A stretch of 64,000 nucleotides of DNA from a virus. The position numbers and the translations under genes are program-made. Positions 1 to 17,676 of the stretch are shown here, in pieces. The stretch is taken from positions 1-64,000 of IMG/VR virus record IMGVR_UViG_3300021373_002437, one strand, 5' to 3'. The notes beneath the pieces are model-generated. The model had not been told where the DNA came from, did no database searches, and saw only the letters and a program-made list of their open reading frames with translations. Position 1 is the stretch's first letter, and each line of letters begins with the position of its first letter.

Positions 1-3
1 GGG

Positions 4-573
4 TTGCTAGATAAATCTATTAATAGCTGGGTTATAGGAGAAAGGAGACCTGCGCTCGACGAGATAAAGAGATTTATTAATAATAACAATTTAAATCTAG
101 ACCCGAACGAGGTTTTTACCTTTTCATCGAAAGAAAAAACAGTGGATTCTTCCTTTTTATCACTCAAGACTGAAGGTAATCAAAATGTAATCCCTAAATT
201 TCTACTAGATAAAACAATATTTAGTTTTGTAACAGAGACTCACATTTATCAAAATATAACTTTAGTATCGGAAAAAACTTTTAAACCTCTTTTACAAAAA
301 CATCCTTTCATGGTTTATAGTCATCCTGAACACATGCACTATCTTCAAGAGTGTGGTTACGTCACTTATTCTGAAATGTTCGATGAATCTTATGATTATG
401 AAAATGATGAGAACAAAATAAAAATTTTAATTGATAATTTATTGTCCTTTAAAGATCGTGTAGTTGGCAAGGAACGTATTATCGAAGAGAAGTTGGAATA
501 TAATAGACAGCATTTTTTGACTATACCATGCAAGGAAAAAACAAAAAAGAAACTTTTGGATTTTTTTGAATGA
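4..573 (+). CDS. Hypothetical phage protein, probably 5'-truncated; possible GT10/fucosyltransferase-like C-terminal motif
   Basis: FSFVTET...VSEKTFKPL...HPF...FDESYD loosely resembles the E-x(n)-TEK motif of alpha-1,3-fucosyltransferases; stop overlaps the next ATG. Confidence 0.45.
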   Translation: MLDKSINSWVIGERRPALDEIKRFINNNNLNLDPNEVFTFSSKEKTVDSSFLSLKTEGNQNVIPKFLLDKTIFSFVTETHIYQNITLVSEKTFKPLLQKHPFMVYSHPEHMHYLQECGYVTYSEMFDESYDYENDENKIKILIDNLLSFKDRVVGKERIIEEKLEYNRQHFLTIPCKEKTKKKLLDFFE

Positions 574-2462
574 AGAAGATAGTATTGGTACAACCAAATT
601 ACAGGCAAGGGCCAAAAGAATTAAATGCATACTACCTCCCATATTCAGTAGGGGTACTATGGGCATATGCTATACAGTTTGAAACTATAACAAAAACCTA
701 TGAATTGGATAAAATTGTCTGGAAAAGGGATTTGATAGATGGTATAATAGATAGTTTCGATGACATAGATGTGGTAGCTTTCAGTACATATGTCTGGAAC
801 AAGAATTATAATTTTGAATTGGCAAGACGAATTAAAGAGCGAAACCCCTCTTGTATTACTATTTTCGGAGGACCAGAAATACAACTACAAAATAAAACGC
901 TCTTTTTACAGAACCCCTTTATGGATTATGTTGTAAAATTGGAGGGGGAATATGTGTTTAAAGATTTGTTGGAAAATTTGGATACCCCAGAACACATTAA
1001 AGGCATACTGATAAACAGGAACGGTGCAGTAATTGATACAGGAGAACCTACCCGAATTACGGATTTGAGTAGTTTACCCAGTCCATATCTTTCTGGTGTT
1101 TTCGATGGTTTGGTTGAAGATTATCCTGACGTTGAATGGAATGCCACATTGGAAACGAATCGCGGGTGCCCATATTCCTGTACCTTCTGCGATTGGGGCA
1201 GTTTAACATATAGTAAAGTTAAGAAGTTTGAATTAGATCGGGTATATGCAGAATTGGAGTGGATGGGTAAAACTGGCTGTGGATTTGTCAGTGTGACTGA
1301 CGCCAACTTTGGAATTTTCTTGGAGCGCGATAATCTAATTGTAGATAAACTTTTAGAAATACAAGAAGAGTACGGCAATCCATACACATTCAGCGTGACA
1401 TGGGCGAAGAACCAGAAGAGCGGGGTTATTGATATTGTTAAGAAGCTTACTGATAGTCCAAAGTCTAATCAGGGACTCACAGTAAGTGTTCAGAGTATGG
1501 ATTTGTCTGTTCTTGAAAACATTAAACGCAAAAATCTTAATCAGCATAAGATAGAAGAGATTTTTGAAATATGTGAAGAACGCAATATACCAACTTACAC
1601 AGAGGTAATATTGGGGTTACCGGGAGAAACCCTTGAGAGTTGGAAGCAAAATTTTTGGGAGTTGTTTGACGCTGGTGCCCACACCGGGTTAAATATTTTT
1701 CAGGCTCAACTACTAGAGAATGCTGAAATGAACTTGGGACAAACAGATGAATTTGAAATGACTTCTCAAGTTGTTTATGATTATATGAGTGGTAGTTATG
1801 ATGAAGACCCGATAAAAGAAGGGGTAAGAGCAGTAACTTCTACTAACACTATGTCTTTTGATGAGATGTTGGATGCACAAATTTTTAGTTGGTTTTTAAA
1901 TACATTTCATGTAAATGGGTTGACAAACTATATAAGTAGATTTTTACACAAAAATACAGATATAAATTATGAAAAGTTCTATGGTGGCTTGTATAAGTAT
2001 TTGCAACATGATAGCTGGTTCAAGGAGCAGGAAGATCAAGTAAGACAGTATTATAGAAAGTGGATGGAATCTGGTTTTATAAATCATCCAAAAATTGCTG
2101 GTGTTGAAATACACGGATGGAATTTAATACACCGTACAATTCTACAGATACATGTAGAAAAGAAAGTTGGTATGGTATTTGATTTGATATATAAATATTG
2201 TGAAAATATTTTTGATGGCGCAGAATTGTTAAATGATATATACAAATTTCAATCTACATATTTTATAGAGTGTGATGATAAGGTAAATTACCCAAAGACT
2301 ATTGATTTTAACTACGATTTTTTGTCTGGTGAATTTAAATTACCTGCGACTTATGTTTTCGATTTTCCAGAAGATAAAAACATGACAGACCAAACCTTTT
2401 TAGAGAATATATATTTTAGAAGGCGAAAAAATTTTGGTAAGGCTGAAATAAAGAAATTGTAA
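570..2462 (+). CDS. Cobalamin (B12)-dependent radical SAM enzyme (class B methyltransferase-like)
   Basis: N-terminal B12-binding-like region (FSTYVWN...IFGGPE...EGE), then ETNRGCPYSCTFCDW (CxxxCxxC), DANFG, ILGLPGET. Confidence 0.9.
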   Translation: MKKIVLVQPNYRQGPKELNAYYLPYSVGVLWAYAIQFETITKTYELDKIVWKRDLIDGIIDSFDDIDVVAFSTYVWNKNYNFELARRIKERNPSCITIFGGPEIQLQNKTLFLQNPFMDYVVKLEGEYVFKDLLENLDTPEHIKGILINRNGAVIDTGEPTRITDLSSLPSPYLSGVFDGLVEDYPDVEWNATLETNRGCPYSCTFCDWGSLTYSKVKKFELDRVYAELEWMGKTGCGFVSVTDANFGIFLERDNLIVDKLLEIQEEYGNPYTFSVTWAKNQKSGVIDIVKKLTDSPKSNQGLTVSVQSMDLSVLENIKRKNLNQHKIEEIFEICEERNIPTYTEVILGLPGETLESWKQNFWELFDAGAHTGLNIFQAQLLENAEMNLGQTDEFEMTSQVVYDYMSGSYDEDPIKEGVRAVTSTNTMSFDEMLDAQIFSWFLNTFHVNGLTNYISRFLHKNTDINYEKFYGGLYKYLQHDSWFKEQEDQVRQYYRKWMESGFINHPKIAGVEIHGWNLIHRTILQIHVEKKVGMVFDLIYKYCENIFDGAELLNDIYKFQSTYFIECDDKVNYPKTIDFNYDFLSGEFKLPATYVFDFPEDKNMTDQTFLENIYFRRRKNFGKAEIKKL

Positions 2463-3299
2463 ATGGAATTTTTTATTGAATATGAAACATATGAAGGGAA
2501 TTCAGATTCCTTGTGTTATTCTTTGTTTGAAAATGAGGTTGTTGATGCGTGGTTGGAATGTATCCAAATCGGTAGACCAGAATTGAATTTTGGTTTTTAT
2601 GGATTGTCTAGACTTGACATAGCAGAAGTATCTTTAAAATTGGCTGCTGCCTATGAGAAAATATCTGAAAAATTATTAGAAAAAGATCAAAACATCGATG
2701 TAAGTAAAATACTAATTGATGGTGCTGTCGATCAACACTTGTTAAATAGACTTCATGCAATTTTTCATCATTACAAAGATAGGGATTTGCAATATGGTTT
2801 AACCGGTAACACTTATCAAGAAATTCTACAACAATTGAATGGTTTGGTTCATTTACTAGAATCACAACCACACAAGAACTCCTACCAGTTTATAATTAAC
2901 CCGGTTAGAAACTATCGTGGAGTGGAAATTCCTGATCATTGGTATAAAAAATACTTTTCAGGGCCCGAACAACACGGAGATTTGGTTTTGGGGTACGGTA
3001 CTGTCGGCAAGGAATTGTTGGAAATATATAAAACAAAAGATGTAAAAAATTTAAATCTTATTAGCCCACAAAAATATGTGTATGGGGAATTTAGACAAAT
3101 TTTTAATGGAGAGATTAATTACATAAGTACAGAACAGCTTAGACTGTGGTGTGCAGAGAGTGGAAAATCTTCATTACATGAAAGAGAACTCTATACCTTT
3201 AGACCAAAGTTAGGAAAAATAAAAACAGATTTGAGCTTTAAACAATTGAGGCAAAAGTGCTTGACGTTTAAAAAAGTATTAGGAGTTGAGGTAGACTGA
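2463..3299 (+). CDS. Hypothetical protein, His/Asn-motif paralog 1
   Basis: LNRLHAIF...LQQLNGLVHLLE...GYGTVGK shared with 4576..5430 and 8303..9361. Confidence 0.75.
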   Translation: MEFFIEYETYEGNSDSLCYSLFENEVVDAWLECIQIGRPELNFGFYGLSRLDIAEVSLKLAAAYEKISEKLLEKDQNIDVSKILIDGAVDQHLLNRLHAIFHHYKDRDLQYGLTGNTYQEILQQLNGLVHLLESQPHKNSYQFIINPVRNYRGVEIPDHWYKKYFSGPEQHGDLVLGYGTVGKELLEIYKTKDVKNLNLISPQKYVYGEFRQIFNGEINYISTEQLRLWCAESGKSSLHERELYTFRPKLGKIKTDLSFKQLRQKCLTFKKVLGVEVD

Positions 3300-3332
3300 T
3301 GTAAGTGACTATGGTGTGTCATTGGTGATGTT

Positions 3333-4571
3333 ATGAAAATAGGTTTTATTGGAATCGGAAAACTTGGATTGTCTTGTGCTGAAAAGATTGCGGAATGTGG
3401 GTATTCCGTAGAGGGTTATGATATAACCCAAAAAAATACCAAAAATGTAAGTCAGGTTAGTACCATTGAGGAAGTAGTAGCAGACAAAGAAATCGTATTT
3501 GTGGCTGTCCCGACACCACATGACTCGAATTATGATGGTCGAAACCCCACATCACATCTGCCGCCCAAAGATTTTTATTATGATGTTGTTAAATCTGTTT
3601 TGGCTGAAGCAAACGACCATATGAATGAGAATCAAGTTCTTGTTTTGATCAGCACTGTTATTCCGGGCACCATAAGAAGTGAGATTATCCCTTTAATTAC
3701 TAATACTCAGTTTACATATAATCCTTATCTTATCGCCATGGGTAGTGTGTCTTGGGATATGGTAAACCCAGAAATGGTGATAATTGGAACTGAGACTGGT
3801 TCTAATGATGATGCTGCAAAGAAACTGGTAAATTTTTATAAGACCATAATGCAAAATGACCCAAGGTATGTACTGGGGACATGGGATGAAGCGGAAGCAA
3901 TCAAAATTTTTTACAACACATTCATCAGTACCAAGATTTCTCTTGTTAACATGATACAGGATGTAGCAGAAATTCAGGGAAATATTGATGTTGATGTGGT
4001 CACAGAAGCATTAGCACAAAGCGATATGCGTATCATGGGACCACAATATATGAAAGCTGGTATGGGTGATGGTGGTGGCTGTCACCCCAGAGATAATATT
4101 GCCCTAAGACACATGGCCCAGAAATTAGGTCTTGGGTATGACTTGTTTGCTAGTATAATGGGTGCCAGAGAGATGCAGGCAAAAAATCTTGCAAAATTAT
4201 TGGTTGAGCTTGCAGATACCCACAATAAGAATATATATATTCATGGAAAGTCCTACAAACCTGATGTAGATTTTTTGGATGGAAGTTACAGCATCCTTGT
4301 TGCATATTATTGTGAAGAGATTGGGTTTGATGTGACATACGTAGACCCCTTGACTGGGGATGATAATCAACCTGAAGAGCCATGTGTAATTCTTTTAGCC
4401 CACAGCCCAGCTACAACTTACAGATATACAACTAAGGAAACCGAAAAGGCAGATCAACTGTATTGCAAAATTCCTGATGGTAGTATAGTGGTTGACCCGT
4501 GGAGAAAATATGTTAATGAAAACTGCAAGGTAATACATTACGGCAACACCAGATATAACAGGGGGGGTTGA
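3333..4571 (+). CDS. ugd: UDP-glucose/GDP-mannose 6-dehydrogenase family
   Basis: GFIGIGKLG Rossmann motif, VAVPTP, ISTVIPGT, EAEAIKIFYN, GGGCHPRD catalytic Cys. Confidence 0.92.
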   Translation: MKIGFIGIGKLGLSCAEKIAECGYSVEGYDITQKNTKNVSQVSTIEEVVADKEIVFVAVPTPHDSNYDGRNPTSHLPPKDFYYDVVKSVLAEANDHMNENQVLVLISTVIPGTIRSEIIPLITNTQFTYNPYLIAMGSVSWDMVNPEMVIIGTETGSNDDAAKKLVNFYKTIMQNDPRYVLGTWDEAEAIKIFYNTFISTKISLVNMIQDVAEIQGNIDVDVVTEALAQSDMRIMGPQYMKAGMGDGGGCHPRDNIALRHMAQKLGLGYDLFASIMGAREMQAKNLAKLLVELADTHNKNIYIHGKSYKPDVDFLDGSYSILVAYYCEEIGFDVTYVDPLTGDDNQPEEPCVILLAHSPATTYRYTTKETEKADQLYCKIPDGSIVVDPWRKYVNENCKVIHYGNTRYNRGG

Positions 4572-4575
4572 GATT

Positions 4576-5430
4576 TTGTATATTAATGTATCTATATGTG
4601 ATGATGAAAAAGAACATACTTTTAGAATCGACCTGTTGTCTAACAAATATGTTGATCATTTATTTGAAAAACATGAAATATCTGGTAACTGGTCTTGGCA
4701 GAGAGTTGCTGTTCCGTCTGAATTGGATTATGATGCGGATAGAATAAAAGAATTGTGGGATGGGTGCCTTTCTTGTTACTATAAATTTTTAGACTTGATA
4801 GGAGCAAAAGATTTGGCAGCCCCCCCAGAAACTTTTGATTTTACCAATAAACATACGAATACTTTCCATCGAATTTTTACAACATACAACATTTCCTGTA
4901 CATACTATGGGGTTGAGTATGAATTTAAACAAGAAGCGTTGGATGAAGTGGAAGAACTTAATGTTCTTATTCATGAACTTGAAAAATATATTCCAAATAA
5001 AACAATCGATGATTTCAAGAAAGATTTTGGAAAGGTGGCGTGGATAGATATTCAGGGAGACAATCACGAGAAAGAAACTAGATTCAATTTTTATGAATCC
5101 GACAGAGAGTTTGTAAATAATTTTTCTGAGTATTGTAATGTTTTTTGCATCAAACATATATTGGGGAAAGACCATTTGATCGGTTATTTAAATGAAGATG
5201 AAAGTCATCATTGGGATATAACAAATTTTCATTTGGGTTATTGTGGGTTTTGTTTGGATTTCCGGGGCGATTTACAACGGGTGTGGAAATACCCACCGTT
5301 GAAAGATTGGGCTGGAGAGGTTTCTTTATCATATTATCCGGTGGGTAGAATATCCGAAGAAGATATGGATGTAATTAGAGGACTTTCTAGTAATGTGAAA
5401 GTTGTAGGGGTTGAATATATAAATGGCTGA
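4576..5430 (+). CDS. Hypothetical protein, His/Asn-motif paralog 2 (TTG start)
   Basis: TNTFHRIF...VEELNVLIHELE...HILGKD; AGGGGG SD-like sequence upstream of TTG. Confidence 0.7.
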   Translation: MYINVSICDDEKEHTFRIDLLSNKYVDHLFEKHEISGNWSWQRVAVPSELDYDADRIKELWDGCLSCYYKFLDLIGAKDLAAPPETFDFTNKHTNTFHRIFTTYNISCTYYGVEYEFKQEALDEVEELNVLIHELEKYIPNKTIDDFKKDFGKVAWIDIQGDNHEKETRFNFYESDREFVNNFSEYCNVFCIKHILGKDHLIGYLNEDESHHWDITNFHLGYCGFCLDFRGDLQRVWKYPPLKDWAGEVSLSYYPVGRISEEDMDVIRGLSSNVKVVGVEYING

Positions 5431-6883
5431 ACAATTCACGGACAATACGAAAAATGAAGATCGTATTAAGATTTTAGAGATAAAACGTGATCAAATCAAT
5501 GAGGTAAGTCCTTCTTTTTGTACTGCCAAATGGTTACAAACGACTCTTTATTTACAGACTGGATTTAATCATTCTTGTCACCACCCATCACCACACAAAA
5601 TACCAGTGAAAGAAGTTCTAGAAAATCCTGCTGCACTTCATAACAGCAAATTTAAAAAAGAACAGCGTGAAAAGATGTTGGCGGGAGAACGACCAAAAGA
5701 ATGTGATTATTGCTGGAATATAGAAGATTTAGATAATAAGTATTTCTCTGATAGGCATTATAAAACGTCCGACTATTGGGCTTGGGATAGGTTCGACGAG
5801 ATAACAAATTCAAATCCAGAAGATGATATTTTTCCTTCTTATCTGGAAGTTTCCTTCTCAAATGCTTGTAACTTTGCATGTTCTTATTGTTCCCCAGATA
5901 TAAGTTCGAAGTGGATGAAGGACATTAAAAGTAATGGCCCATATCCCGTCAAGTTTGGTAGCCACCACCTTTCTTATTTGCGAGAGAGAGAACAGTTCCC
6001 ATACTCACACGATGAATATAATCCATACGTCGAAGCCTTTGACAAATGGTTCCCAGAAGCGTATCCCCATCTAAAAGTTTTTCGTATTACTGGTGGTGAA
6101 CCAACCATGTCAAAAGATTTCTGGAAAACCTTGGATTTTATACTTGAGAATCCAAGACCCGATCTTGAGATTTCAATTAATACTAATCTGGGCACACCAA
6201 AAGAATTGATTGATCGTTTAATTGTTTATGCTAAGAAATTAGATGAGACTTGTAAGGAATGTTTAATATTTACTAGCTGCGAAGCCTACAAAGAGCAAGC
6301 AGAGTATATTAGAGACGGTATGAATTATGACTATTGGTATTCTAATATTGTAAGGTTCCTAGAAGAGACCGATTGTAAAGTTTGTACTATGACAACGATT
6401 AATGTGTTGAGCTTACCATCATTTTCTAGGTGGCTTGATGATATGATGCAGCTACGAATTAAATATGATAAAGACAAATATGCACACCGAACCCCGATAA
6501 GTTTTAATTATTTGAGGTTCCCACCACACTTACAGGTGACCATTCTACCAAGAAAATATAGAGAGCGGTTTGCTAGGGAATTATCGGCTACAGCATTACA
6601 GTGGCATAAGAGAAATACTAGAATTGCCCATGCGAAGATATATCTAGAAGAACAAGATCAGATTGCTAGGTTCTGTGAATATTTGTTGAAAGATACTACT
6701 TCTGGTCCAAAGTACCGGGAAAATTTTATGCAGTTCATACAGCATTATGATTATAGAAGAAATAAAAACTTTACTGAAACTTTCCCGCAATATAAAAAGC
6801 TTTATGGAGAATGGCAAGAAGAATATGCAGAATCTCTATCAGCCGATAAGAGAAATCTTGAGTTAGGTAACCACGTTGAGTGA
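5423..6883 (+). CDS. Radical SAM protein with N-terminal twitch/SPASM-like domain (subfamily A)
   Basis: C-x2-KW...SCHHP...ECDYCW N-domain; CNFACSYC; ITGGEP; C-terminal DYRR..F..TFP. Confidence 0.9.
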   Translation: MAEQFTDNTKNEDRIKILEIKRDQINEVSPSFCTAKWLQTTLYLQTGFNHSCHHPSPHKIPVKEVLENPAALHNSKFKKEQREKMLAGERPKECDYCWNIEDLDNKYFSDRHYKTSDYWAWDRFDEITNSNPEDDIFPSYLEVSFSNACNFACSYCSPDISSKWMKDIKSNGPYPVKFGSHHLSYLREREQFPYSHDEYNPYVEAFDKWFPEAYPHLKVFRITGGEPTMSKDFWKTLDFILENPRPDLEISINTNLGTPKELIDRLIVYAKKLDETCKECLIFTSCEAYKEQAEYIRDGMNYDYWYSNIVRFLEETDCKVCTMTTINVLSLPSFSRWLDDMMQLRIKYDKDKYAHRTPISFNYLRFPPHLQVTILPRKYRERFARELSATALQWHKRNTRIAHAKIYLEEQDQIARFCEYLLKDTTSGPKYRENFMQFIQHYDYRRNKNFTETFPQYKKLYGEWQEEYAESLSADKRNLELGNHVE

Positions 6884-8306
6884 TCATTTAATAGAATATA
6901 GAAAACGAGTCCTTGATGCGAAGTCCCCGTCTTTCTGTGGTGCGAAATGGTATAATGCTACTACTTGGTTAGGTAGTGGAACTACTGCATCGTGCCACCA
7001 CCCGACTGCTCATAAAATACCTCTTGTGGAGCTAGAGGCTGATCATACTGCAATACACAACACGAAGCATAAGAAAGCAGTTAGAAAGATGATGCAAGAA
7101 GGCGAAAGGCCAAAGGAGTGTGAATATTGTTGGCGCATTGAGGATATGGGTAAGGATTCTGTTTCGGATAGAGTTTTCAAATCAGAAATCTACAGCGAAG
7201 AAGACCTTCAGAAAGCTTATGAAATGGATTGGAAAGATAGTGTTGATTTAAAGACTTTTGAAATTGCTTTTGATCGAACATGTAACCTAGCATGTTCTTA
7301 TTGCAACCCCTCCTTTTCTTCTACGTGGGCTAGGGACATTAAAAAACTGGGTCCATACCAGAATCTTTTATCTGATGGAGCGGGTGCGTTTGAACAAGAT
7401 GGTTCTTGGACTGAGCCTTATGGTAGAGACGAAGAGAACCCGTATATCACAGCATTTTGGAAGTGGTGGGATGATGGGTTGTCAGATAGTCTAGAAGAAT
7501 TACGTATTACTGGTGGTGAACCCCTAATGTCTGGTAACACTTGGAAGTTATTTGATTGGTTTGAACAACAAGATTCTGACATGAGGTTTGCAATCAATAC
7601 AAATTTCATGGCAAAGGACGAAATTGTTGATCGTTTGATTGAAAAATCTCACCACATAAAACATTTTGAGCTTTATACTAGTGCTGAGTGTTATGGCACC
7701 CAGCAAGAATTTTTACGTGATGGGTTTGAATGGGATACATGGTCGAAAAATATGGACCGATTTGCAGAAGAGGGTAATTATCATAGCATAAATATCATGA
7801 TGACGATCACTGCTTTGAGTGTGTTTTCTATTACAGAATTCTTAGACGAAGTTACAGATATGAAGCAGAGAAGTCGTGCTGGCAAACATCCTGTAATAAG
7901 CGTCAATATTTTGAGGTTCCCTAGCTTCCAAAGCGTTGTGACATTACCAGAACATATAAGAGCATTTTGTAGAAACGAGTTGTTTCTTTGGATTGAAGAG
8001 AATAAAAATTTGCCCTGTTGGTTAGATTTTGAAATCGCCAGCCTGCAAAGACTGGTCGATTATCTGTATTCATACGACTCTCCATTTGAGAAGGCTAGTG
8101 AGTTGGAGGTTCGACAACAAGACTTAAAATCTTTCTTTGATCAATACTGTGATCGTAGAGGTAAGGACATAAACGTATTTCCAACAATTTTTACCGAATG
8201 GTATAATTCTTTGGAAAGTGGGTATAAGAAAGCAGCTTTGAAGTCTGGAGATAATACTAGATTTTTGGATGATAATAGATTAATAGAACTGAGGGACATA
8301 TTATGA
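6876..8306 (+). CDS. Radical SAM protein with N-terminal twitch-like domain (subfamily A)
   Basis: CGAKW...SCHHP...ECEYCW; CNLACSYC; ITGGEP; DRRG...FP. Confidence 0.9.
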   Translation: MSDHLIEYRKRVLDAKSPSFCGAKWYNATTWLGSGTTASCHHPTAHKIPLVELEADHTAIHNTKHKKAVRKMMQEGERPKECEYCWRIEDMGKDSVSDRVFKSEIYSEEDLQKAYEMDWKDSVDLKTFEIAFDRTCNLACSYCNPSFSSTWARDIKKLGPYQNLLSDGAGAFEQDGSWTEPYGRDEENPYITAFWKWWDDGLSDSLEELRITGGEPLMSGNTWKLFDWFEQQDSDMRFAINTNFMAKDEIVDRLIEKSHHIKHFELYTSAECYGTQQEFLRDGFEWDTWSKNMDRFAEEGNYHSINIMMTITALSVFSITEFLDEVTDMKQRSRAGKHPVISVNILRFPSFQSVVTLPEHIRAFCRNELFLWIEENKNLPCWLDFEIASLQRLVDYLYSYDSPFEKASELEVRQQDLKSFFDQYCDRRGKDINVFPTIFTEWYNSLESGYKKAALKSGDNTRFLDDNRLIELRDIL

Positions 8307-9361: not shown

Positions 9362-9362
9362 A

Positions 9363-10760
9363 ATGCCACATACATACGATTTAATAAAGGTTAAAGATAT
9401 AACGGAACAATTGAATGAAGTTGGTCCCGGTTTTTGTATGGCTAAGTGGTACCACATTAGCATGCATCTACATACGGGACAAAATCACAGTTGTTACCAC
9501 CCAGCCCCACATAAAATTCCATTGAAAGAAGCACAGGAGAACCCTAATGTACTCCACAATACCCCATATAAGAAACAGGTTCGAAAAGAAATGTTGTCTG
9601 GTGGTAGACCCTCAGAATGTTCTTATTGTTGGGATGTAGAAGACTTGCCCGGAGACCATATTTCTGATAGAATGTTAAGGTCTTCTGAAGAATGGTCTAT
9701 ACCTAAAATTGAAGAAACTTCAAAGATGACCGGGGATGAAGATGTTTATCCTGCATATCTAGAACTGAATTTTAGTAATCGCTGCCAATTTAAGTGTAGT
9801 TACTGCGCTCCTATGGCTAGTTCTACTTGGGTTAATGAAACGGATAAGTATGGTGATTGGCCTTTGGAAAACCCGATCAATGTTAGGCAGTACCAAAACA
9901 TATCATTCCAAAATGAGGGGACTAAACATGGAGAAGAAGATTCGAACCCATATATTAAAGTCTTTTGGGATTGGTTTCCAGAAGCATATCCTCATGTACA
10001 GACACTTAGATTCACTGGTGGCGAGCCTTTATTAAGCCCCAATGTTTTCAAGGTTCTTGATTATGTTTCAGAACACCCAAACCCAGAACTTAAATTTGCT
10101 GTAAACAGTAACATGTCAGTTCCTCAGAGAAACATAGAGCGGTTCATTAATGTCACTAATGATTTGGTGCAAAATAATAAAATCAAGGGGTATGGGGTAT
10201 TCACCAGTGTAGATACGTGGGGGGCACAAGCTGAATGGATACGTAATGGATTGAACATAGAGAAATACGAAAACAATCTTCATTACTACATGCAAAACTC
10301 CGCAACCCCATATATGAGTTTTATGGTCACGTTCTGTTTGCTGGCAATTCCTAGGTTCACGGAATTTTTGGATAAAGTATTGGAATTGAGGAAGCAGTAT
10401 AACGTTTGTAATGATCAGCGCCAAAGAATAAACTTTGATACTCCATACACAGTAGAACCACCACATTTAACCGCTAGAATTGCAGATGATTGGTTTGTGG
10501 AAAGATTAGATCACAACTGTCAATACATTTTAGACAGGGTTGATGACAATGATGTGAATGCGTTTTCCATGGTAGAATATGAAAAGCTTCATCGGGTTTT
10601 GGAGTGGGTGAAGAGAAGTAGATTTGAGGGCGATGAATTGGCAATGAACCGTAGAGACTTTGCTAAATTTGTCGATGAACATGACAGGAGACGGGGCACA
10701 GACTTTCATGCTGCATTCCCTGAACTTAGAGAATTTTATGAGATGTGTAGAAAATCATGA
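9363..10760 (+). CDS. Radical SAM protein with N-terminal twitch-like domain (subfamily A)
   Basis: CMAKW...SCYHP...ECSYCW; CQFKCSYC; FTGGEP; DRRRGTDF..AFP. Confidence 0.9.
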   Translation: MPHTYDLIKVKDITEQLNEVGPGFCMAKWYHISMHLHTGQNHSCYHPAPHKIPLKEAQENPNVLHNTPYKKQVRKEMLSGGRPSECSYCWDVEDLPGDHISDRMLRSSEEWSIPKIEETSKMTGDEDVYPAYLELNFSNRCQFKCSYCAPMASSTWVNETDKYGDWPLENPINVRQYQNISFQNEGTKHGEEDSNPYIKVFWDWFPEAYPHVQTLRFTGGEPLLSPNVFKVLDYVSEHPNPELKFAVNSNMSVPQRNIERFINVTNDLVQNNKIKGYGVFTSVDTWGAQAEWIRNGLNIEKYENNLHYYMQNSATPYMSFMVTFCLLAIPRFTEFLDKVLELRKQYNVCNDQRQRINFDTPYTVEPPHLTARIADDWFVERLDHNCQYILDRVDDNDVNAFSMVEYEKLHRVLEWVKRSRFEGDELAMNRRDFAKFVDEHDRRRGTDFHAAFPELREFYEMCRKS

Positions 10761-12064
10761 AAGATGAAAAAAATGAAATTATGTGCAAAACATTCACCGA
10801 TGATGTTCAGGAGTCATTTTGTGTACTTCCCTTTGTCCACACAAACCTGAACACTGAGGGAGATGTTTACCCCTGTTGTATTTCTTGGGACGCAGAGCGT
10901 TCAAATAAAATTGGTCTTTTAAAAGATAATACTTTAGAAGAATTATTCAACGATGATAAGCTACAACAACTTCGTCGCGACTTGATATCAGGAACGCGCC
11001 GCCCCGATGTTTGTGTTCGCTGTTACACTTCTGAAGACAATGGTTTTCCTGCTGGTAGACATGGCAACAATCGTGATCTGCAGCACATGATTCCTCAAAT
11101 ATTAGAGGACTATTCTGAAACCGGATATATGCCACCGAAAATAAAAAGCTGGGATATTCGTTATAGTAATTTATGTAATTTGAAATGTAGAAGTTGTGGT
11201 GGAATATACAGCACTACATGGTCAAAAGAAGATTCTGAGTTTTATCATGGGATGGAATACCGCGAGATAAAATCATATGAAGGAAAAGACCCTCTTGAGA
11301 ACCAATATGAACACGTAGAAAAAATATATTTTGCTGGTGGTGAGCCACTTATAATGCCAGAACATTTTTCAACCCTGAAGAAGTTGATTGAAATCGATAG
11401 AGCCAAGTACGTTAGATTAGTTTATAATACTAACATGACAAAACTCAATTATGATAGGAACTACTTACCAGATTTGTGGAAAGAATTTAAAGCAGTTTCA
11501 TTGGGGTTGAGTATAGATAATTTTGGGGATAGAGCAAACTACATACGTCATGGAAATATAAAATGGAACAAAATAGAAGATAATATTAAGAAAATGTATG
11601 AATATACAACGACTCCCGGTTCTAATATGGATTACTTTTTTTCACCAACTGTGAGTTTATTGAATGTGTATACTTTAACAGATTTGCATCGCTATTTATT
11701 TGAAAATGGTATGATGGTCCACCCAGACCAAATACTTCTCAACATTTTGTATCACCCACAGGAACTTTCTATCACCATACTCCCTGACCACATAAAGGAA
11801 GAAATATCTGGCAAAATTATTGCACATATAGCGTGGTTGAATTCCTTGGACGGTACTTATGGCAATGCCAAAGGGCAATTTGAAAGTCTATTGTCCTATA
11901 TACATGAGACAATACCGAATGTGGAAGAACATGTTGAACGTTTTGTGAAAAGAACCCAAGAGATTGACCACAGAAGAAATGAATGCTTCCCAGATACCTT
12001 TCCAGAATATGCAGAATGGTGGCAAACTATTACTAAGGACAAAATTTTCGCGGTAAACATATGA
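10757..12064 (+). CDS. Radical SAM protein with N-terminal twitch-like domain (subfamily B)
   Basis: CVLPF...PCC...CVRC; CNLKCRSC; FAGGEP; DHRRNECFPDTFP. Confidence 0.9.
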   Translation: MKDEKNEIMCKTFTDDVQESFCVLPFVHTNLNTEGDVYPCCISWDAERSNKIGLLKDNTLEELFNDDKLQQLRRDLISGTRRPDVCVRCYTSEDNGFPAGRHGNNRDLQHMIPQILEDYSETGYMPPKIKSWDIRYSNLCNLKCRSCGGIYSTTWSKEDSEFYHGMEYREIKSYEGKDPLENQYEHVEKIYFAGGEPLIMPEHFSTLKKLIEIDRAKYVRLVYNTNMTKLNYDRNYLPDLWKEFKAVSLGLSIDNFGDRANYIRHGNIKWNKIEDNIKKMYEYTTTPGSNMDYFFSPTVSLLNVYTLTDLHRYLFENGMMVHPDQILLNILYHPQELSITILPDHIKEEISGKIIAHIAWLNSLDGTYGNAKGQFESLLSYIHETIPNVEEHVERFVKRTQEIDHRRNECFPDTFPEYAEWWQTITKDKIFAVNI

Positions 12065-13329
12065 AAGAACTGCCCAAAACTATATGTGCTCACCCGTGGC
12101 AACATTTACATAGTTGGCCTGATGGGAAGGCTATGTTGTGCTGTGTTGCCCATGGGGGAGATAAACACGGTGCTGTTGGTGATTTTTCGGTTAATTCATA
12201 CGAAGAAATTATGAACAGTGATAAAATGAATCAAATCCGAAAAGATTTCTTGAATGGTGAGAAACCCGTTGAGTGTAGTGCTTGTTGGAAAGCTGAAGAG
12301 TTGGGTAAAAGCAGTTTTAGGTTAGATATTGGTCTCAGCGATGAAGTAAGAGATTTGATGGAAAGAACCTCCGATAATGGAGAGCTTCCAGAAACAAAGA
12401 TGTATTACATGGATTACCGATTCAGCAATCTGTGTAACCTTGGTTGTCAAACTTGTGGTAGTCCACTTAGCAGCACAATAGCAAATAAGAGGGAGAATAA
12501 CGAGAGTGAAAATTCTATACTGAGAGACCGAGGGGTTTTATCTGAGAGGGGTACTGTTACATCATTTGTTTATGCCAGACCAGATTTCATGGAAGTTGAT
12601 GTTTATCCATATTTGGATGATTGTCGGAGTTTTTATTTTGCTGGTGGTGAACCGTTAATGCACCAAGAACATCTGGATATACTTAACTACCTAAACGACA
12701 ATAAATTATACAATAAGCACATAATGTATAGTACAAACCTGTCAATTTTATCATGGAAGGGTAACGACTTTATTGATATTTGGAAAAACTTTAGCAACTT
12801 GATGTTTTGGTGTAGTGTAGATGCACATGGCCCCGCATTAGAATATGTTAGGGAATATTCCAACCACGACACGATCTTTAAAAATTTGCAAAAGTTGTTA
12901 GATGCAAAAAAAGATCATCCCCAAATGAAGATAAATATTTGCTGTACCCACAGTGTATATAATGCATATTGTTTTCCAGAATTTATAGACTTTTTGTATG
13001 AGCAGGGATTTCTACAACTGCTGGATGATATTGAAATAAACTATGCTTTTGGAGATTTGAATTCTCCAGCAATACTTCCTAACTTCGCAAAAAAGGAACT
13101 AAAAGAGAAGAGGGCCCTTTGTAGGAACAATGAATCAATTCAATATGCAATGCAAAAATTTGATAAGTTTGAATATTACTATGACACAGTAGATTCTGTT
13201 ATAGACGAACCCAGTCAAAAAAGAGTCTGGGATGATCTGGTCTCAAAAAAATTGATAAAAGATATGAAAAAGCTTGAAAACAGCCTGCCTTGGTTGCACA
13301 GTGTTGTTGAGAGGTATAGAATTGTATGA
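12061..13329 (+). CDS. Radical SAM protein with N-terminal twitch-like domain (subfamily B)
   Basis: CAHPW...LCC...CSACW; CNLGCQTC; FAGGEP. Confidence 0.9.
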   Translation: MKELPKTICAHPWQHLHSWPDGKAMLCCVAHGGDKHGAVGDFSVNSYEEIMNSDKMNQIRKDFLNGEKPVECSACWKAEELGKSSFRLDIGLSDEVRDLMERTSDNGELPETKMYYMDYRFSNLCNLGCQTCGSPLSSTIANKRENNESENSILRDRGVLSERGTVTSFVYARPDFMEVDVYPYLDDCRSFYFAGGEPLMHQEHLDILNYLNDNKLYNKHIMYSTNLSILSWKGNDFIDIWKNFSNLMFWCSVDAHGPALEYVREYSNHDTIFKNLQKLLDAKKDHPQMKINICCTHSVYNAYCFPEFIDFLYEQGFLQLLDDIEINYAFGDLNSPAILPNFAKKELKEKRALCRNNESIQYAMQKFDKFEYYYDTVDSVIDEPSQKRVWDDLVSKKLIKDMKKLENSLPWLHSVVERYRIV

Positions 13330-14531
13330 CACATTGCATTAACGTATATAAAGGACTTAGATATACCAATAGTGGGGATGTTCAGTTTTGTTGTAAGAGT
13401 GATATGTTTCTAGATGATAAGGATGGGAACAAGGCACAAATTTATACTCACACCCTAGAAGAAGCCCAAAATGGAAATCTTGCTGTCGAAATTAGAGAAG
13501 ATTTGGAGCGGGGGGTAAAACATAAGAATTGCCAGAAATGTTGGGATGAAGAAGAAGCTGGCATTTCTAGTAAAAGAATTTTGGACAACCAAAGAGCTAT
13601 TCGATATTGGGGAGAAAGGTATTTAAATGATAAAGTGGTATCCCCAGAAATAGTTGAGTTTAATTTTGGAACTATTTGCAACCTCAAATGTAGAATATGT
13701 GGTCCGTGGTCGAGCAGTAGATGGAATTCTGAATTTTATGAGTTGCTTGCCGGGGAGGATTATCCAAAAGAACATCACGACAACCAAGTTTCTTTGTGGC
13801 AAGGTAATTGGGAAGATGATAGTCCTGCGTGGGACAATATTTCTAAAAGCATCGGCAACCTAAGACACATTGATTTCTATGGTGGCGAGCCTTTTTTGGT
13901 AGACCGCAATTGGGAAATATTGAAGCAGAATGTTGAAAATGGTAATTCCTCAAACCAATATATCCATTTCAATACGAATGGAACTCGTTATGAGGAAGAG
14001 CATATAGAAATTTTAAAGAGTTATCGTAGAATAAATATAAGTTTATCTATTGACGATATGGGGGAGCGATTTAATTATCAGAGGCATCCGGCTAACTGGG
14101 ATATAGTAAATGAAAACTTAAAGAAATTTAAAGAGCTTGAAGAAGAATTCCCCCAGTTTGAAGTTATGGTCTGTGTGACTGTTAATAATTTAAATTTGTG
14201 GTATATACCGGAATTGGTGAATTATTTTGATAGTATGGGAATACCCTATTATATAAACTATTTACACTACCCCTCCCACTATAACATATCAAATTTAAAA
14301 CAAGATGTTAAGCCTTTGGTGGCGCAAAAATATGATGAAGCCATGATGGAGATGCAATGTAATTATAGTAAAGATAATTTGAAAGCAATAATAAATTATA
14401 TGAATGTTAATATAGGCACCGCTGAACGGTGGAATGAATTTTTAAATAAAACTGAATTCAGTGATAAATATAGAAAACAAAATTTTAAAAGTGTTTTTCC
14501 TGAGTGGGCCGATGTGTTGGGGATTGTGTAA
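13326..14531 (+). CDS. Radical SAM protein with N-terminal twitch-like domain (subfamily B)
   Basis: HC...FCC...CQKCW; CNLKCRIC; FYGGEP; DKYRKQNF..VFP. Confidence 0.9.
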   Translation: MTHCINVYKGLRYTNSGDVQFCCKSDMFLDDKDGNKAQIYTHTLEEAQNGNLAVEIREDLERGVKHKNCQKCWDEEEAGISSKRILDNQRAIRYWGERYLNDKVVSPEIVEFNFGTICNLKCRICGPWSSSRWNSEFYELLAGEDYPKEHHDNQVSLWQGNWEDDSPAWDNISKSIGNLRHIDFYGGEPFLVDRNWEILKQNVENGNSSNQYIHFNTNGTRYEEEHIEILKSYRRINISLSIDDMGERFNYQRHPANWDIVNENLKKFKELEEEFPQFEVMVCVTVNNLNLWYIPELVNYFDSMGIPYYINYLHYPSHYNISNLKQDVKPLVAQKYDEAMMEMQCNYSKDNLKAIINYMNVNIGTAERWNEFLNKTEFSDKYRKQNFKSVFPEWADVLGIV

Positions 14532-15203
14532 TTGAATATAGTTATAGTTGGTGCTGGGAATGACCCGCAAAGATTTGGGGGATATTTCAAACAAGTTGCA
14601 GAAGAAGCGGAACATACTGTTTATACGTTTTCTTATAGACTTGAAACTACCGCTCTTGAGGACGTTCCAGTTATTTTTGAGTTGGATGTTTTAGATCGTA
14701 TACCAGAGGGAGAAACAATAGACTTGTTTCTATACAATTCCATTGGTGGGTTTTATCCGGGTCAACCAAAACATTATTCTTCATTGCACGATGTTAATAT
14801 GTACGAGTGGCAGAAATCTATTCTCATAAACGCAGCAATTCCACACAAACTTTCTACAATGGCTTTAAGAAAAATGGATGAAAACAGTTCTATTGTGTTT
14901 ATGACTTCTTCTGCCTCTTATTTGATAAACAGAGACAATTATTTGGAAATGGCTGGTTACTTTGGCACTAAAGGTGCTATGAATCAACTTATGCGAGCCA
15001 TGGCAGAATATAATGATAAGGGGACTACAGTATATACCATGGCACCGCACATACCATACGAAAATCCAGAACAGGCACGACTCATATTGAAAAAATTGAC
15101 CGATTACATTTTATCTATGAATAAAGAAAGTAATGGAAAAATACTACAGTGTTATCCACCAGATGGTAGAATCTGGCCCCACGAGGGAGGACAACATCCA
15201 TGA
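14532..15203 (+). CDS. Short-chain dehydrogenase/reductase (SDR)-like oxidoreductase
   Basis: N-terminal IVIVGAG...G, FMTSS, YFGTK (YxxxK catalytic motif). Confidence 0.75.
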   Translation: MNIVIVGAGNDPQRFGGYFKQVAEEAEHTVYTFSYRLETTALEDVPVIFELDVLDRIPEGETIDLFLYNSIGGFYPGQPKHYSSLHDVNMYEWQKSILINAAIPHKLSTMALRKMDENSSIVFMTSSASYLINRDNYLEMAGYFGTKGAMNQLMRAMAEYNDKGTTVYTMAPHIPYENPEQARLILKKLTDYILSMNKESNGKILQCYPPDGRIWPHEGGQHP

Positions 15204-15328
15204 AAGACGAAAAAGATGTAGGAGAAAATGAAAAAGATCAGAAAGAAGTTGAAGAAAAAAAATCTGATGAAACATTGAAAGATAAAATTGATAAGTTGAA
15301 AAAAGAAGACCCGTTTATATATGACTAA
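15200..15328 (+). CDS. 42-aa charged peptide ending KKEDPFIYD (not in the ORF track)
   Basis: MKDEKDVGENEKDQKEVEEKKSDETLKDKIDKLKKEDPFIYD*; GGAGG SD; ATGA overlap with the SDR stop and 8-nt overlap with the next start. Confidence 0.75.
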   Translation: MKDEKDVGENEKDQKEVEEKKSDETLKDKIDKLKKEDPFIYD

Positions 15329-15926
15329 TTTAAAGATAACAAAACCATTCGAGGGGTGGAAATACCACGGTGATGTTAATAAGGTTCCTTGTTGGTTCTT
15401 TGAGGGTGTTGATGTACCTGACATAGATTTCGATTCGTTAAAATGGAAGTCAAAACAGGGAGATTTTCTACAGGGGTCCGAAACCTTTGCATTGAGGTAT
15501 GAGGTCGAGGATATGTCAGACGCTTTGCAGAGAACATTAAGAGATTTGACTGTTTCTGTTATAAGCGAGATTCGTGAAAATCATTCTGAAAACATGGGAA
15601 TAGATATTTTGTATCCAATTTTTCCATGGAATCTCACTGCTAAGGTTGCTCTAAAAAAAGACATGAAAAGATTTCATATGGGAAAACATCTGGATAATAG
15701 AAATTCTAGATTTACTTTCATTATGAATTTAACTGACAATCTTGATGGCACTACTTTTCACACTGAAAATTTTGCAGAGCCATATAATGAATATGACCCT
15801 GTGTTTGGTCCCACCAAAAAAGGCAGTGGTGTTTTCTATTTCAACCATCACACATTAATACATGATATTGGACCAATAAAGTCAGAGGAACGATACATAC
15901 TTTTTCATCAACAATATATGAATTAA
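15321..15926 (+). CDS. 2OG-Fe(II) oxygenase-like protein
   Basis: HLD (HxD)...GTTF...GVFYFN..TLIH...R pattern typical of the double-stranded beta-helix fold. Confidence 0.7.
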   Translation: MTNLKITKPFEGWKYHGDVNKVPCWFFEGVDVPDIDFDSLKWKSKQGDFLQGSETFALRYEVEDMSDALQRTLRDLTVSVISEIRENHSENMGIDILYPIFPWNLTAKVALKKDMKRFHMGKHLDNRNSRFTFIMNLTDNLDGTTFHTENFAEPYNEYDPVFGPTKKGSGVFYFNHHTLIHDIGPIKSEERYILFHQQYMN

Positions 15927-15927
15927 A

Positions 15928-17361
15928 ATGATAGCTTGGGGAGTTAGTGCCGGATTTCATGATGCTGCTTTGTCCGTGGTGGACAGCAGGCAGATTCTTT
16001 TTGCCTCGCATTCGGAGCGTTACAGTAGAGAGAAAAACGATAAGAACCTACACTCGGACCTGATACAAGACGCATTACAGTTCGGTTATCCCGAAATTAT
16101 ATTCTGGTATGAAAACCCTCTTTTAAAAGCCACCAGAAGAATCTATGCTGGACAAAGTAACTGGTACACAAATCCAAAGAAGTATTTTACTGAGGCTGGC
16201 TTTGACCCCTGTTGTCATATAGAATGGGGAAACCACCATGAGAGTCATATGGCTGCTGGTCACTACACAAGCCCGTTTGGTTCTTCCGCGACTCTAGTGA
16301 TTGATGCTATTGGGGAGTGGACCACAACATCCATCTGGAAAAACAATAAGAAGATTTGGAGTGCAAACTATCCACGTTCATTGGGACTGCTTTATTCTGC
16401 CTTCACAGATAGAGTTGGACTAAAGCCCAATGAGGATGAATATATCTTGATGGGTATGGCAGCATACGGTGAGCCTAATTATCAGGACGAGATTTATGAG
16501 TTGTCCAGAACAAGAAACTTCCACCGGGGAGCGAGAGACTTCCGACCAAATCTTACCTCAGAACAAGACCTGTTTGATATTGCATGCAGCGTACAGAAAG
16601 TATATGAATCATACTTTCATGCTTTGTTGTATAAGGCTAGAGATTTGACGGGAGAAAAGAATCTTGTGTTCATGGGTGGTTGTGCTTTGAATTGTTTAGC
16701 TAACAGGATGATTCCAAGGTATTTTAAAAAATATTGGATTATGCCCAGCCCCGGTGATGCAGGTTCTTCTCTTGGAGCGGTTCTTGCAAAGACCCGAAGA
16801 TATGTTAAATTTAAATCCCCTTACCTTGGGTACAATATTGAAGGCAAGTACCCAGTCAATGCTGCACTTAAAGAGTTGATGGAAACTGGTATGGTGGGCG
16901 TGGCGAATGGTCGCGCTGAGTTTGGTCCTAGGGCATTAGGTAACAGGAGCTTACTTGCAGACCCTCGTGGTCAAGAAATGAAGGACAAGGTGAATGCAAT
17001 CAAGCAGAGGCAAGAGTTTCGTCCCTTTGCCCCAGTGATACCTCAAGAAAAGGTTTCTGAGTATTTTGATGTACCCGAAGATTTTGAATCCCCCTATATG
17101 CAGGAGGTTGTTCGCTGTAAATACCCAGACGAATTCCCAGCCATTGTACATAAAGACGGTACCAGCCGTGTACAAACTGTAACCAAAAAGCAAAATTCTG
17201 GGTTATATAGATTGCTTACTAAGTGGGAACAGGAGACTGGTTGCCCCATGCTTCTGAATACTAGTCTAAATATTAAGGGACAACCAATTGTCAACAATGA
17301 AAAGCATGCGCGTGACTTTGAGCATAAATATAACGTGAGAGTTTTTACACAAGAGACCTAA
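15928..17361 (+). CDS. O-carbamoyltransferase, NodU/CmcH family
   Basis: GFHDAA, HHESH, DAIGE, MGMAAYG, GGCALN, EFGPRALGNRS, FRPFAP, HKDGTSRVQTV, LLNTSLN. Confidence 0.95.
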   Translation: MIAWGVSAGFHDAALSVVDSRQILFASHSERYSREKNDKNLHSDLIQDALQFGYPEIIFWYENPLLKATRRIYAGQSNWYTNPKKYFTEAGFDPCCHIEWGNHHESHMAAGHYTSPFGSSATLVIDAIGEWTTTSIWKNNKKIWSANYPRSLGLLYSAFTDRVGLKPNEDEYILMGMAAYGEPNYQDEIYELSRTRNFHRGARDFRPNLTSEQDLFDIACSVQKVYESYFHALLYKARDLTGEKNLVFMGGCALNCLANRMIPRYFKKYWIMPSPGDAGSSLGAVLAKTRRYVKFKSPYLGYNIEGKYPVNAALKELMETGMVGVANGRAEFGPRALGNRSLLADPRGQEMKDKVNAIKQRQEFRPFAPVIPQEKVSEYFDVPEDFESPYMQEVVRCKYPDEFPAIVHKDGTSRVQTVTKKQNSGLYRLLTKWEQETGCPMLLNTSLNIKGQPIVNNEKHARDFEHKYNVRVFTQET

Positions 17362-17363
17362 AT

Positions 17364-17371
17364 TATAAATA
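17364..17371 (+). promoter_or_regulatory. T4-type late promoter TATAAATA
   Basis: Exact consensus in the intergenic gap before 17380. Confidence 0.75.
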
Positions 17372-17379
17372 ATCGTATC

Positions 17380-17676
17380 ATGGGTGATATACTTTTATTC
17401 AAACAAAAACCCAAGGAAAAAGAGCCGCTGCTCTTGGGTTACAAAATATCTTTCTATACTGAGGTAGAGATTGAGATAGCTTTGCTGGCTCTCAATATGT
17501 ATGGATTTGATAAGATCAGATACACCGTAGAAACAATGAAACAGTTAGACCCATTGTACATACGGGACTGCCTGCTAAAACTCAAAATGAGTGATTTGAT
17601 TTCGCGCAAAGGAAAACGTGCGATTAATGTTATTATCGATAATATGGAGGAAATACGTGATGCCAACCAAATTTAA
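17380..17676 (+). CDS. Hypothetical protein
   Basis: 98-aa ORF directly after a late promoter. Confidence 0.7.
   Translation: MGDILLFKQKPKEKEPLLLGYKISFYTEVEIEIALLALNMYGFDKIRYTVETMKQLDPLYIRDCLLKLKMSDLISRKGKRAINVIIDNMEEIRDANQI

Follow-up and report, generated by a model that had tools for sequence, protein, structure and literature searches.

Several described systems resemble parts of the locus analysed here. The mycofactocin pathway comprises a peptide (MftA), a PqqD-type protein (MftB), a radical S-adenosylmethionine (SAM)/SPASM enzyme (MftC), a peptidase (MftE) and a glycosyltransferase (MftF). Glycosylated mycofactocin and the glycocins are precedents for sugar-decorated polypeptides. The cobalamin-dependent radical SAM enzymes TokK, ThnK, CysS and KedN5 belong to carbapenem or aromatic-peptide pathways. 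Among the solved O-carbamoyltransferases, NovN and TobZ act on sugar hydroxyls and GdmN on those of a polyketide. Among marine T4-like phages, a pelagimyophage study mentions radical SAM cassettes, UDP-glucose dehydrogenase (UGDH) genes and glycosyltransferase genes without analysing the cassettes (PMC7029224). Here we describe a phage gene island at positions 1-17361 of a 64,000-nt window, which is the first 64 kb of the 95,980-bp IMG/VR contig IMGVR_UViG_3300021373_002437 (about 51% complete). The island contains six radical SAM enzymes of the N-terminal-twitch family (N_Twi_rSAM, NF033640) together with sugar, methyl and carbamoyl enzymes. In our reading, its products are soluble cytoplasmic enzymes that together build and edit a sugar-bearing molecule or glycoconjugate, and we give this reading about an even chance of being correct.

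All genes of the island are on the plus strand. The original prediction described at least 16 co-oriented genes, mostly abutting or overlapping, that run off the left edge of the window. This description holds: the open reading frame (ORF) listing contains 15 genes, one uncalled 42-codon gene brings the number to 16, and the junctions range from -8 to +33 nt, with overlaps of 4 or 8 nt in most. The first gene, g01, is cut by the left end of the contig, and the operon continues beyond it. We counted 17 copies of the T4 late-promoter word TATAAATA in the window, against about 5 expected. The sites include 17364, 22448, 25579, 30860, 36217 and 50816, and in most cases structural genes lie downstream. 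Inside the island there is one copy, within a coding region, and none is intergenic; the next copy, at 17364, is just past the last gene. Because the junctions are tight and no intergenic TATAAATA is present inside, the island reads as a single operon driven from beyond the contig end. Scans for sigma-70 promoters and terminators within the island gave no excess over shuffled sequences. No membrane segment was detected in the island proteins (no 19-residue stretch above 1.6 on the Kyte-Doolittle scale).

The six N-terminal-twitch proteins score 285.7-354.9 bits against NF033640, for which the cut-off is 170 bits. Three of them belong to subfamily A: g06 (5423-6883; 319.8 bits), g07 (6876-8306; 297 bits) and g09 (9363-10760; 306.3 bits), the last being of the type that is paired with genes of the g08 family described below. 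The other three belong to subfamily B: g10 (10757-12064; 354.9 bits), g11 (12061-13329; 285.7 bits) and g12 (13326-14531; 307.2 bits). All six have four to six Cys residues N-terminal to the CxxxCxxC radical SAM core. In g06, Cys 33, 52, 94 and 97 precede CNFACSYC at residue 149. In subfamily B, a SPASM domain precedes the core (residues 22-90 before Radical_SAM at 136-283 in g10, 9-76 in g11 and 4-73 in g12). Thus, all six share the N-terminal four-Cys twitch/SPASM-like module of the NF033640 family. The difference from the catalogued family is that six members of two deep subfamilies lie in one phage operon, some of them with an unnamed partner family. Together with g02, they make up the seven CxxxCxxC enzymes that had been predicted for the island.

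In a tree of 312 sequences, the family splits into these two deep subfamilies, and each window paralogue falls into its own supported clade with viral orthologues. The clade of g06 contains 11 viral orthologues with a support of 1.0, that of g07 has a support of 0.99, and g12 is placed in a separate clade. These separate clades suggest that the six copies are old and have been kept separately, which fits six different steps rather than gene dosage. The nearest solved radical SAM cores, all weak matches, are viperin, MoaA and the cytosylglucuronate decarboxylase BlsE, which are nucleotide or sugar enzymes.

Some of these radical SAM genes are accompanied by a second family, represented by g08 (8303-9361), for which we collected 459 representatives at 50% identity. 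The invariant residues of the family are His111, Asn143, His147, Gly188 and Lys199. The structure model of g08 has a predicted local distance difference test (pLDDT) value of 94 and a predicted template modelling (pTM) score of 0.91, and suggests a cyclophilin-like beta-barrel. In VIA-align, cyclophilins matched the model with Z scores of 9-10 over about 140 residues, the barrel being interrupted by a helical insert. A Foldseek search of the PDB with the model gave no match at E <=0.001, the matches in BFVD were uncharacterised phage proteins only, and a search of the Atlas gave no usable match. The fold, modelled with confidence, thus looks new. A second member, g03 (2463-3299), matches the hidden Markov model (HMM) of the g08 family with E 1.2e-33 and g08 itself in BLASTP with E 9e-8. 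A probable divergent third member is g05 (4576-5430), which aligns in hhalign with E 4.6e-5 (probability 69%, 165 columns). Its N..H..F, LNxLxHExE and GK motifs are in register with the g08-family profile, and BLASTP to g03 gave E 0.006 only.

A g08-family gene adjoins a radical SAM gene of the g09 clade in the window and in three other loci (L028, L040 and L108). In addition, the protein P0189 is a natural fusion of a g08-type domain and N_Twi_rSAM (350 bits). From these sequence relationships, we read the g08 family as the likely partner of subfamily-A radical SAM enzymes. A complex prediction of g09 with g08, run without controls, scored 0.00 and speaks neither for nor against this pairing. 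Other fusions were also found. In P0128, P0133 and P0135 (about 745-775 aa), a g08-type domain follows an N-terminal part of 410 residues, which gave no Pfam or NCBIfam match and no likeness to GT-B or radical SAM profiles. P0262 and P0271 combine a g08 domain with an ABC-ATPase-like region, a weak assignment (about 50 bits in NCBIfam; below the cut-off in Pfam) on which we do not build.

The remaining enzymes of the island point to sugar and tailoring chemistry. The partial gene g01 (1-573) encodes the C-terminal 190 aa of a protein of about 430 aa, and matches an HMM built from 40 full-length relatives with E 1.5e-41. When a full-length member of the family was modelled (pTM 0.79), the top structural matches were all GT-B glycosyltransferases (Z 10.8-9.0; Foldseek E 1e-4). 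T4 beta-glucosyltransferase (Z 10.8), alpha1,3-FucT (Z 10.7) and FUT9 (Z 10.3) were tied. The Atlas search gave GT10 clusters at 0.78-0.79 only, which we treat as a lead. The family has no Pfam or NCBIfam match, PF00852 (GT10) is absent from two full-length relatives, and its profile found nothing meaningful among PDB sequences. Judged from the model, the g01 family is a GT-B-fold glycosyltransferase family resembling GT10/fucosyltransferases, of which the island copy holds the C-terminal half only.

The next gene, g02 (570-2462), encodes a cobalamin-dependent (class B) radical SAM enzyme, as had been predicted. The B12-binding domain (PF02310; 32.3 bits, cut-off 32.1) is followed by Radical_SAM (PF04055; 45.4 bits), CPYSCTFC is at residue 200, and about 150 C-terminal residues lie outside the assigned domains. 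Among PDB sequences, g02 matches the iterative C-methylases TokK (7kdx; E 6e-78, residues 18-478) and CysS (E 3e-57). It therefore has both domains in common with the TokK/ThnK/CysS/KedN5 group and aligns with TokK over about 460 residues, and it probably is a C-methyltransferase of this type. It is below the KedN5 cut-off of NF033712 (237.6 versus 700 bits), with profile positions 16-385 of 624 matched. In contrast to the pathways of that group, the context of g02 is a phage operon of sugar type. As a side observation, the presence of a cobalamin enzyme in a marine phage means that cobalamin has to be available in the host cell during infection, and this may constrain host range or niche.

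Nucleotide-sugar dehydrogenases are characterised by a GxGxxG motif and a catalytic Cys in a GGxCxxKD-type motif. In g04 (3333-4571), the sequence reads IGIGKLG at the N-terminus and GGGCHPRD with a catalytic-type Cys. The Pfam domains UDPG_MGDP_dh (71.9 bits) and UDPG_MGDP_dh_N (59.5 bits) are above their cut-offs, and we consider g04 to be a nucleoside-diphosphate (NDP)-sugar 6-dehydrogenase-like member of the UGDH family. Its identity is 56% to the protein annotated as UGDH in Synechococcus phage Bellamy and 45.5% to the UGDH of Pelagibacter phage HTVC008M. In HTVC008M (KC465899.1, 128890-132306), a carbamoyltransferase (28% identical to the island enzyme g15), a methyltransferase and this UGDH lie side by side; the group is related to the accessory genes of the island but free of radical SAM genes.

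Near the end of the island, g13 (14532-15203) encodes a short-chain dehydrogenase/reductase (SDR) of 223 aa. This member of the predicted set is supported by adh_short in Pfam (31.7 bits, cut-off 26.6) and by SSAS and YFGTK (YxxxK) motifs; the N-terminal glycine motif is atypical (VGAGNDPQRFG). The prediction of a 2-oxoglutarate (2OG) oxygenase fared less well. The protein g14 (15321-15926) does match 2OG-FeII_Oxy_3, but at 18.3 bits, below the cut-off of 27. It has a candidate H-x-D (KHLDN) with a later His, and it has no PDB sequence match. Thus, g14 is a possible 2OG-Fe(II) oxygenase. The last gene, g15 (15928-17361), is clearer. It passes the cut-offs for the YrdC-like Carbam_trans_C (184.5 bits) and the Kae1-like Carbam_trans_N (130 bits) and matches NovN (E 1.4e-52), GdmN (E 7e-44) and TobZ (E 1e-37) among PDB sequences, so that the predicted carbamoyltransferase is confirmed as an O-carbamoyltransferase of the NodU/CmcH/TobZ type. 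Both carbamoyltransferase domains of TobZ, NovN, GdmN and NodU are present in g15, which is about 100 residues shorter than TobZ and is below the NodU equivalog cut-off (133.7 versus 1000 bits).

The uncalled gene (15200-15328) lies between g13 and g14 and was missed by ORF length filters. It encodes a micro-protein of 42 codons ending in KLKKEDPFIYD. The start of the gene overlaps the g13 stop as ATGA, GGGAGG is located 9 nt upstream, and the end overlaps the g14 start by 8 nt; from this arrangement, it is predicted to be translationally coupled on both sides. The DPFIY tail was found in 14 other loci. Thirteen of these hold a carbamoyltransferase gene of the g15 clade, usually directly downstream, and the micro-protein is missing from most radical SAM loci. 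This co-occurrence predicts that it serves the carbamoyltransferase, as its partner or its substrate, and is no precursor for the radical SAM enzymes. A comparable case is saxitoxin SxtI, which acts with the small proteins SxtJ and SxtK (PMC2679770); here, unlike the saxitoxin case, a 2OG-oxygenase-like gene stands between the micro-protein and carbamoyltransferase genes. The DPFIY micro-protein has no Pfam match, and for DUF5989 (PF19451) ten such micro-proteins gave none even at E <=10, which is a weak test because the queries are very short.

This set of genes is not confined to one contig. Relatives of the NF033640 type are present in more than 580 IMG/VR contigs, and one paralogue matches more than 7,900 protein clusters (90% identity), none of them informatively named. 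We examined the neighbourhoods (<=10 kb) of N-terminal-twitch genes in 80 viral loci, which contain one to seven copies each. A glycosyltransferase was found in 46 loci and any sugar-related gene in 54. The g01-type GT-B family was the most frequent neighbour (40 loci), followed by a GT7-like transferase with a lectin-like domain (26), GT2 (23), methyltransferases (23), NDP-sugar epimerases/dehydratases (17), UGDH (12) and carbamoyltransferases (10). A cultured example is the jumbo Ralstonia phage RsoM2USA (MG752970.1), which has two N-terminal-twitch genes, RsoM2USA_202 and RsoM2USA_349. Of the two, RsoM2USA_202 is 52% identical to g07, and the other is a g06-type gene (45%). RsoM2USA_199 is a carbamoyltransferase, 46.6% identical to g15, and an unannotated gene of 36 codons (L159:8038-8148) ends in QDPFIYK. 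All three numbered genes are annotated as hypothetical.

Thus, the island is one instance of a cassette type that is present in hundreds of viral contigs and is not unique to this phage. Since the genes form one operon and their homologues repeatedly co-occur in other loci, the original view of a tailoring cluster, as opposed to scattered auxiliary genes, stands. Its further claim of an undescribed system stands in part: we found no paper on the function of NF033640 enzymes, and the family is catalogued only. However, the cassettes are not rare, as the contig count shows, and they have been mentioned before (PMC7029224). The cassettes of that study likewise occur in marine T4-like phages with UGDH and glycosyltransferases, but they lie between fibre and neck genes in a host-recognition cluster, whereas the present island adjoins phoH.

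The island proteins are soluble, the island itself encodes a glycosyltransferase, a dehydrogenase and an O-carbamoyltransferase, and related loci are rich in sugar genes. Taken together, these features make tailoring of a soluble sugar or glycoconjugate the best reading. We propose the following scheme, in which the substrate, the order of the steps, the chemistry of the N-terminal-twitch enzymes and the target are suggestions of ours. First, g04 would oxidise a nucleotide sugar to a uronic acid. Second, g01, probably with more transferases encoded beyond the contig end or elsewhere in the genome, would attach the sugar to a soluble acceptor. Third, g02 would methylate an unactivated carbon one or more times in the manner of TokK and CysS. 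Fourth, the six N-terminal-twitch enzymes would act in turn, each abstracting hydrogen at a different position or from a different intermediate, with oxidation, epimerisation, deoxygenation or cross-linking as the outcome. The cyclophilin-like proteins g03, g05 and g08 may assist some of them, and the N-terminal four-Cys cluster may handle an electron or bind the substrate. Fifth, the SDR g13 and the possible 2OG oxygenase g14 would adjust ketone and hydroxyl groups. Finally, g15 with the DPFIY micro-protein would O-carbamoylate a hydroxyl. Because no membrane segments are present, a lipid-linked O-antigen is a less likely acceptor than a virion or host protein or a soluble metabolite.

Several observations weigh against this proposal. 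In 26 of the 80 viral loci, no recognisable sugar gene is within reach, and the glycosyltransferase neighbour counts given above are raw counts, uncorrected for how common such genes are in these phages. The score of g04 is below the TIGR03026 cut-off (173.5 versus 189.8 bits) and its UDP-binding UDPG_MGDP_dh_C domain reaches 22.7 bits against 30, so that the UGDH of the original prediction is upheld at the level of the two Pfam domains but not at this narrower one. The matches to BlsE, viperin and MoaA span only the common radical SAM core, and the chemistry that we assign to the NF033640 enzymes is a guess. Furthermore, in the bacteria that carry cellular relatives, PqqD is present in 20 of 77 loci, together with an S26-like peptidase and a small S74-domain protein, and adjoins a subfamily-A radical SAM gene in 7.

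These bacterial relatives have a narrow distribution. When 185,579 species genomes were scanned with two subfamily-A motifs, the matches were almost only in Bdellovibrionota, a distribution that holds for subfamily A only. Single genomes of this group have as many as about 25 members that score above the cut-off, and one 30-kb stretch alone has about 14. The closest cellular relatives are 35-44% identical to the window proteins, versus 55-77% for viral relatives, and no closely similar host lipopolysaccharide or exopolysaccharide locus was found, which would have been the sign of simple hitch-hiking against which the original prediction had to be checked. The conserved Bdellovibrionota set consists of the radical SAM gene, two GT4 genes, genes of two unknown families, an ABC-2 permease and ATPase pair, PqqD (in the 20 loci just mentioned), the S26-like peptidase and a 145-aa S74 protein, in which a short conserved N-terminal part is joined to a Peptidase_S74 self-cleaving chaperone domain. 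GT4 genes are present in 25 of the 77 loci. The restriction of the cellular relatives almost to Bdellovibrionota, in a conserved set, and the fusion of the g08 family to N_Twi_rSAM are new observations.

PqqD and a peptidase form a grammar of peptide maturation, and this suggests that the substrate in Bdellovibrionota may be a (glyco)peptide or protein. The parts list of mycofactocin matches these relatives, which have radical SAM enzymes, PqqD, a peptidase and glycosyltransferases. As a separate observation, the bacterial loci L117, L123, L127, L130, L132, L137 and L149, which have PqqD along with the rest of this set, look like a so far undescribed system by which predatory bacteria mature a (glyco)peptide or protein.

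For the phage island, the corresponding alternative is that amino-acid residues of a peptide or protein are the substrate of the radical SAM enzymes, giving a product like a ribosomally synthesised and post-translationally modified peptide (RiPP) or a modified virion or fibre protein. The sugar enzymes would decorate the same polypeptide, and the g08 family would replace PqqD as the partner that recognises the substrate. In L123, L127, L130 and L132, no more than 120 nt separate PqqD (PF05402, E 4e-16 to 2e-11) from subfamily-A radical SAM genes, and PqqD co-occurs with the S26-like peptidase, the 145-aa S74-domain protein and the ABC-2 exporter. However, the radical SAM proteins adjacent to PqqD are outside the clades of the window genes, and no PqqD, S26-like peptidase or small S74-domain gene was found in the window, the 96-kb contig or the 80 viral loci. 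The set expected for a RiPP pathway, namely a precursor, PqqD or a RiPP recognition element and a leader peptidase beside the maturase, was found in a subset of the Bdellovibrionota loci and not in the island. Likewise, in comparison with mycofactocin, the island has no PqqD or peptidase, the auxiliary cluster of its radical SAM enzymes is N-terminal, and no MftA-like precursor was identified. In favour of a polypeptide, the g08 barrel resembles cyclophilins, which bind peptides, and P0189 fuses a g08-like domain to N_Twi_rSAM. In addition, 11 viral loci have large S74 tail-fibre genes on the strand of the cassette, 3-9 kb upstream of it. The operon also holds a conserved Tyr-tailed micro-protein, but this DPFIY protein tracks the carbamoyltransferase (13/14) rather than the radical SAM arrays, and the tight packing leaves no space for a further precursor gene. 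Taking both sides together, we consider a peptide or protein product of this kind rather unlikely, but it is the main and a serious rival of the sugar reading.

Less probable still, and in our estimate unlikely, is that the operon feeds unusual sugars into the export route of the host and thereby remodels its O-antigen or capsule during infection, with a block to superinfection as one possible benefit. Such a role was proposed by the pelagimyophage authors for phage glycosyltransferase and UGDH genes (PMC7029224), and Bdellovibrionota relatives occur with GT4, GT2 and an ABC-2 permease and ATPase of the polysaccharide-export kind. However, the island encodes no membrane protein, initiating transferase, flippase or exporter, as would be expected of an O-antigen or capsule assembly locus. 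The ABC pair is found in none of the 80 viral loci and is absent from the window, and in the bacteria it could equally export a peptide.

A free small molecule is also conceivable as the product, though we hold this to be quite improbable; it could be a cofactor or a compound resembling an aminoglycoside or a nucleoside, and its target would be the host or competitors. Methylases of the TokK/CysS type and carbamoyltransferases of the NovN/GdmN/TobZ type are known from antibiotic pathways, all enzymes of the island are soluble, and the nucleoside-antibiotic enzyme BlsE is among the nearest radical SAM cores. In contrast, the island has no scaffold-forming enzyme (cyclase, synthase, non-ribosomal peptide synthetase or polyketide synthase) and no exporter. 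Moreover, glycosyltransferases dominate the neighbourhoods, and the cassette is beside virion genes in many phages.

Hypermodification of phage DNA or nucleotides, by base glycosylation or carbamoylation, appears very improbable to us: the g01-family structural match is tied between T4 DNA beta-glucosyltransferase and fucosyltransferases, the nucleotide-acting viperin and MoaA are weak neighbours of the radical SAM enzymes and a 2OG-oxygenase-like gene is present, but the Z scores fail to separate GT-B families, the sub-threshold 2OG match is to a prolyl-hydroxylase-like family, and searches of the 96-kb contig, which is about half a genome, revealed neither a thymidylate-synthase-type hydroxymethylase nor TET/JBP, although the TET search matched nothing at all, its controls included.

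A more specific version can be formulated that combines glycoconjugate tailoring with the protein-linked substrate of the main alternative. The N-terminal-twitch enzymes and their cyclophilin-like partners might constitute a new, virus-rich system that makes several different radical edits to a protein-attached sugar, with the partner presenting the substrate as a counterpart of PqqD. We put this forward tentatively, as something that is well short of probable. If it is true, phage particles and surface or secreted proteins of Bdellovibrionota bear glycan modifications that are new to glycobiology. Arrays of six to fourteen different copies imply multistep radical chemistry on sugars or glycoconjugates that has not been described in glycobiology or phage biology. 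Should the product end up on virions or on infected cells, it would matter for host range, for competition between phages in the ocean and for the price that phages pay for iron-sulfur and cobalamin enzymes.

Downstream of the carbamoyltransferase gene, g16 (17380-17676, plus strand) encodes a protein of 98 aa, for which no Pfam or NCBIfam family match was found. A copy of TATAAATA at 17364-17371 precedes it, and it is probably outside the operon. Homologues that are 43% identical occupy the same slot between the carbamoyltransferase and PhoH genes in L058 and L059. In L058, L059 and L061, the order of radical SAM genes, carbamoyltransferase, g16 and PhoH is common and the number of radical SAM genes varies, which suggests that this lineage has a variable island adjacent to phoH.

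The rest of the window encodes T4-type gp32 and baseplate and tail families. The gp6 protein is at most 39% identical to those of cultured phages, the best being HTVC008M, and neither the island nor 18-40 kb gave a megablast match among GenBank phages. An ORF outside the island (55621-56451, minus strand) had no match in a PDB sequence search. The stretch is present in two seawater or marine DNA runs from two studies, with no RNA run among those listed. The G+C content is 0.34-0.38 in the island and 0.40-0.45 in the remainder of the window. The low value (positions 1-16000 compared with the rest) fits a separately acquired or fast-exchanging cassette adjoining phoH.

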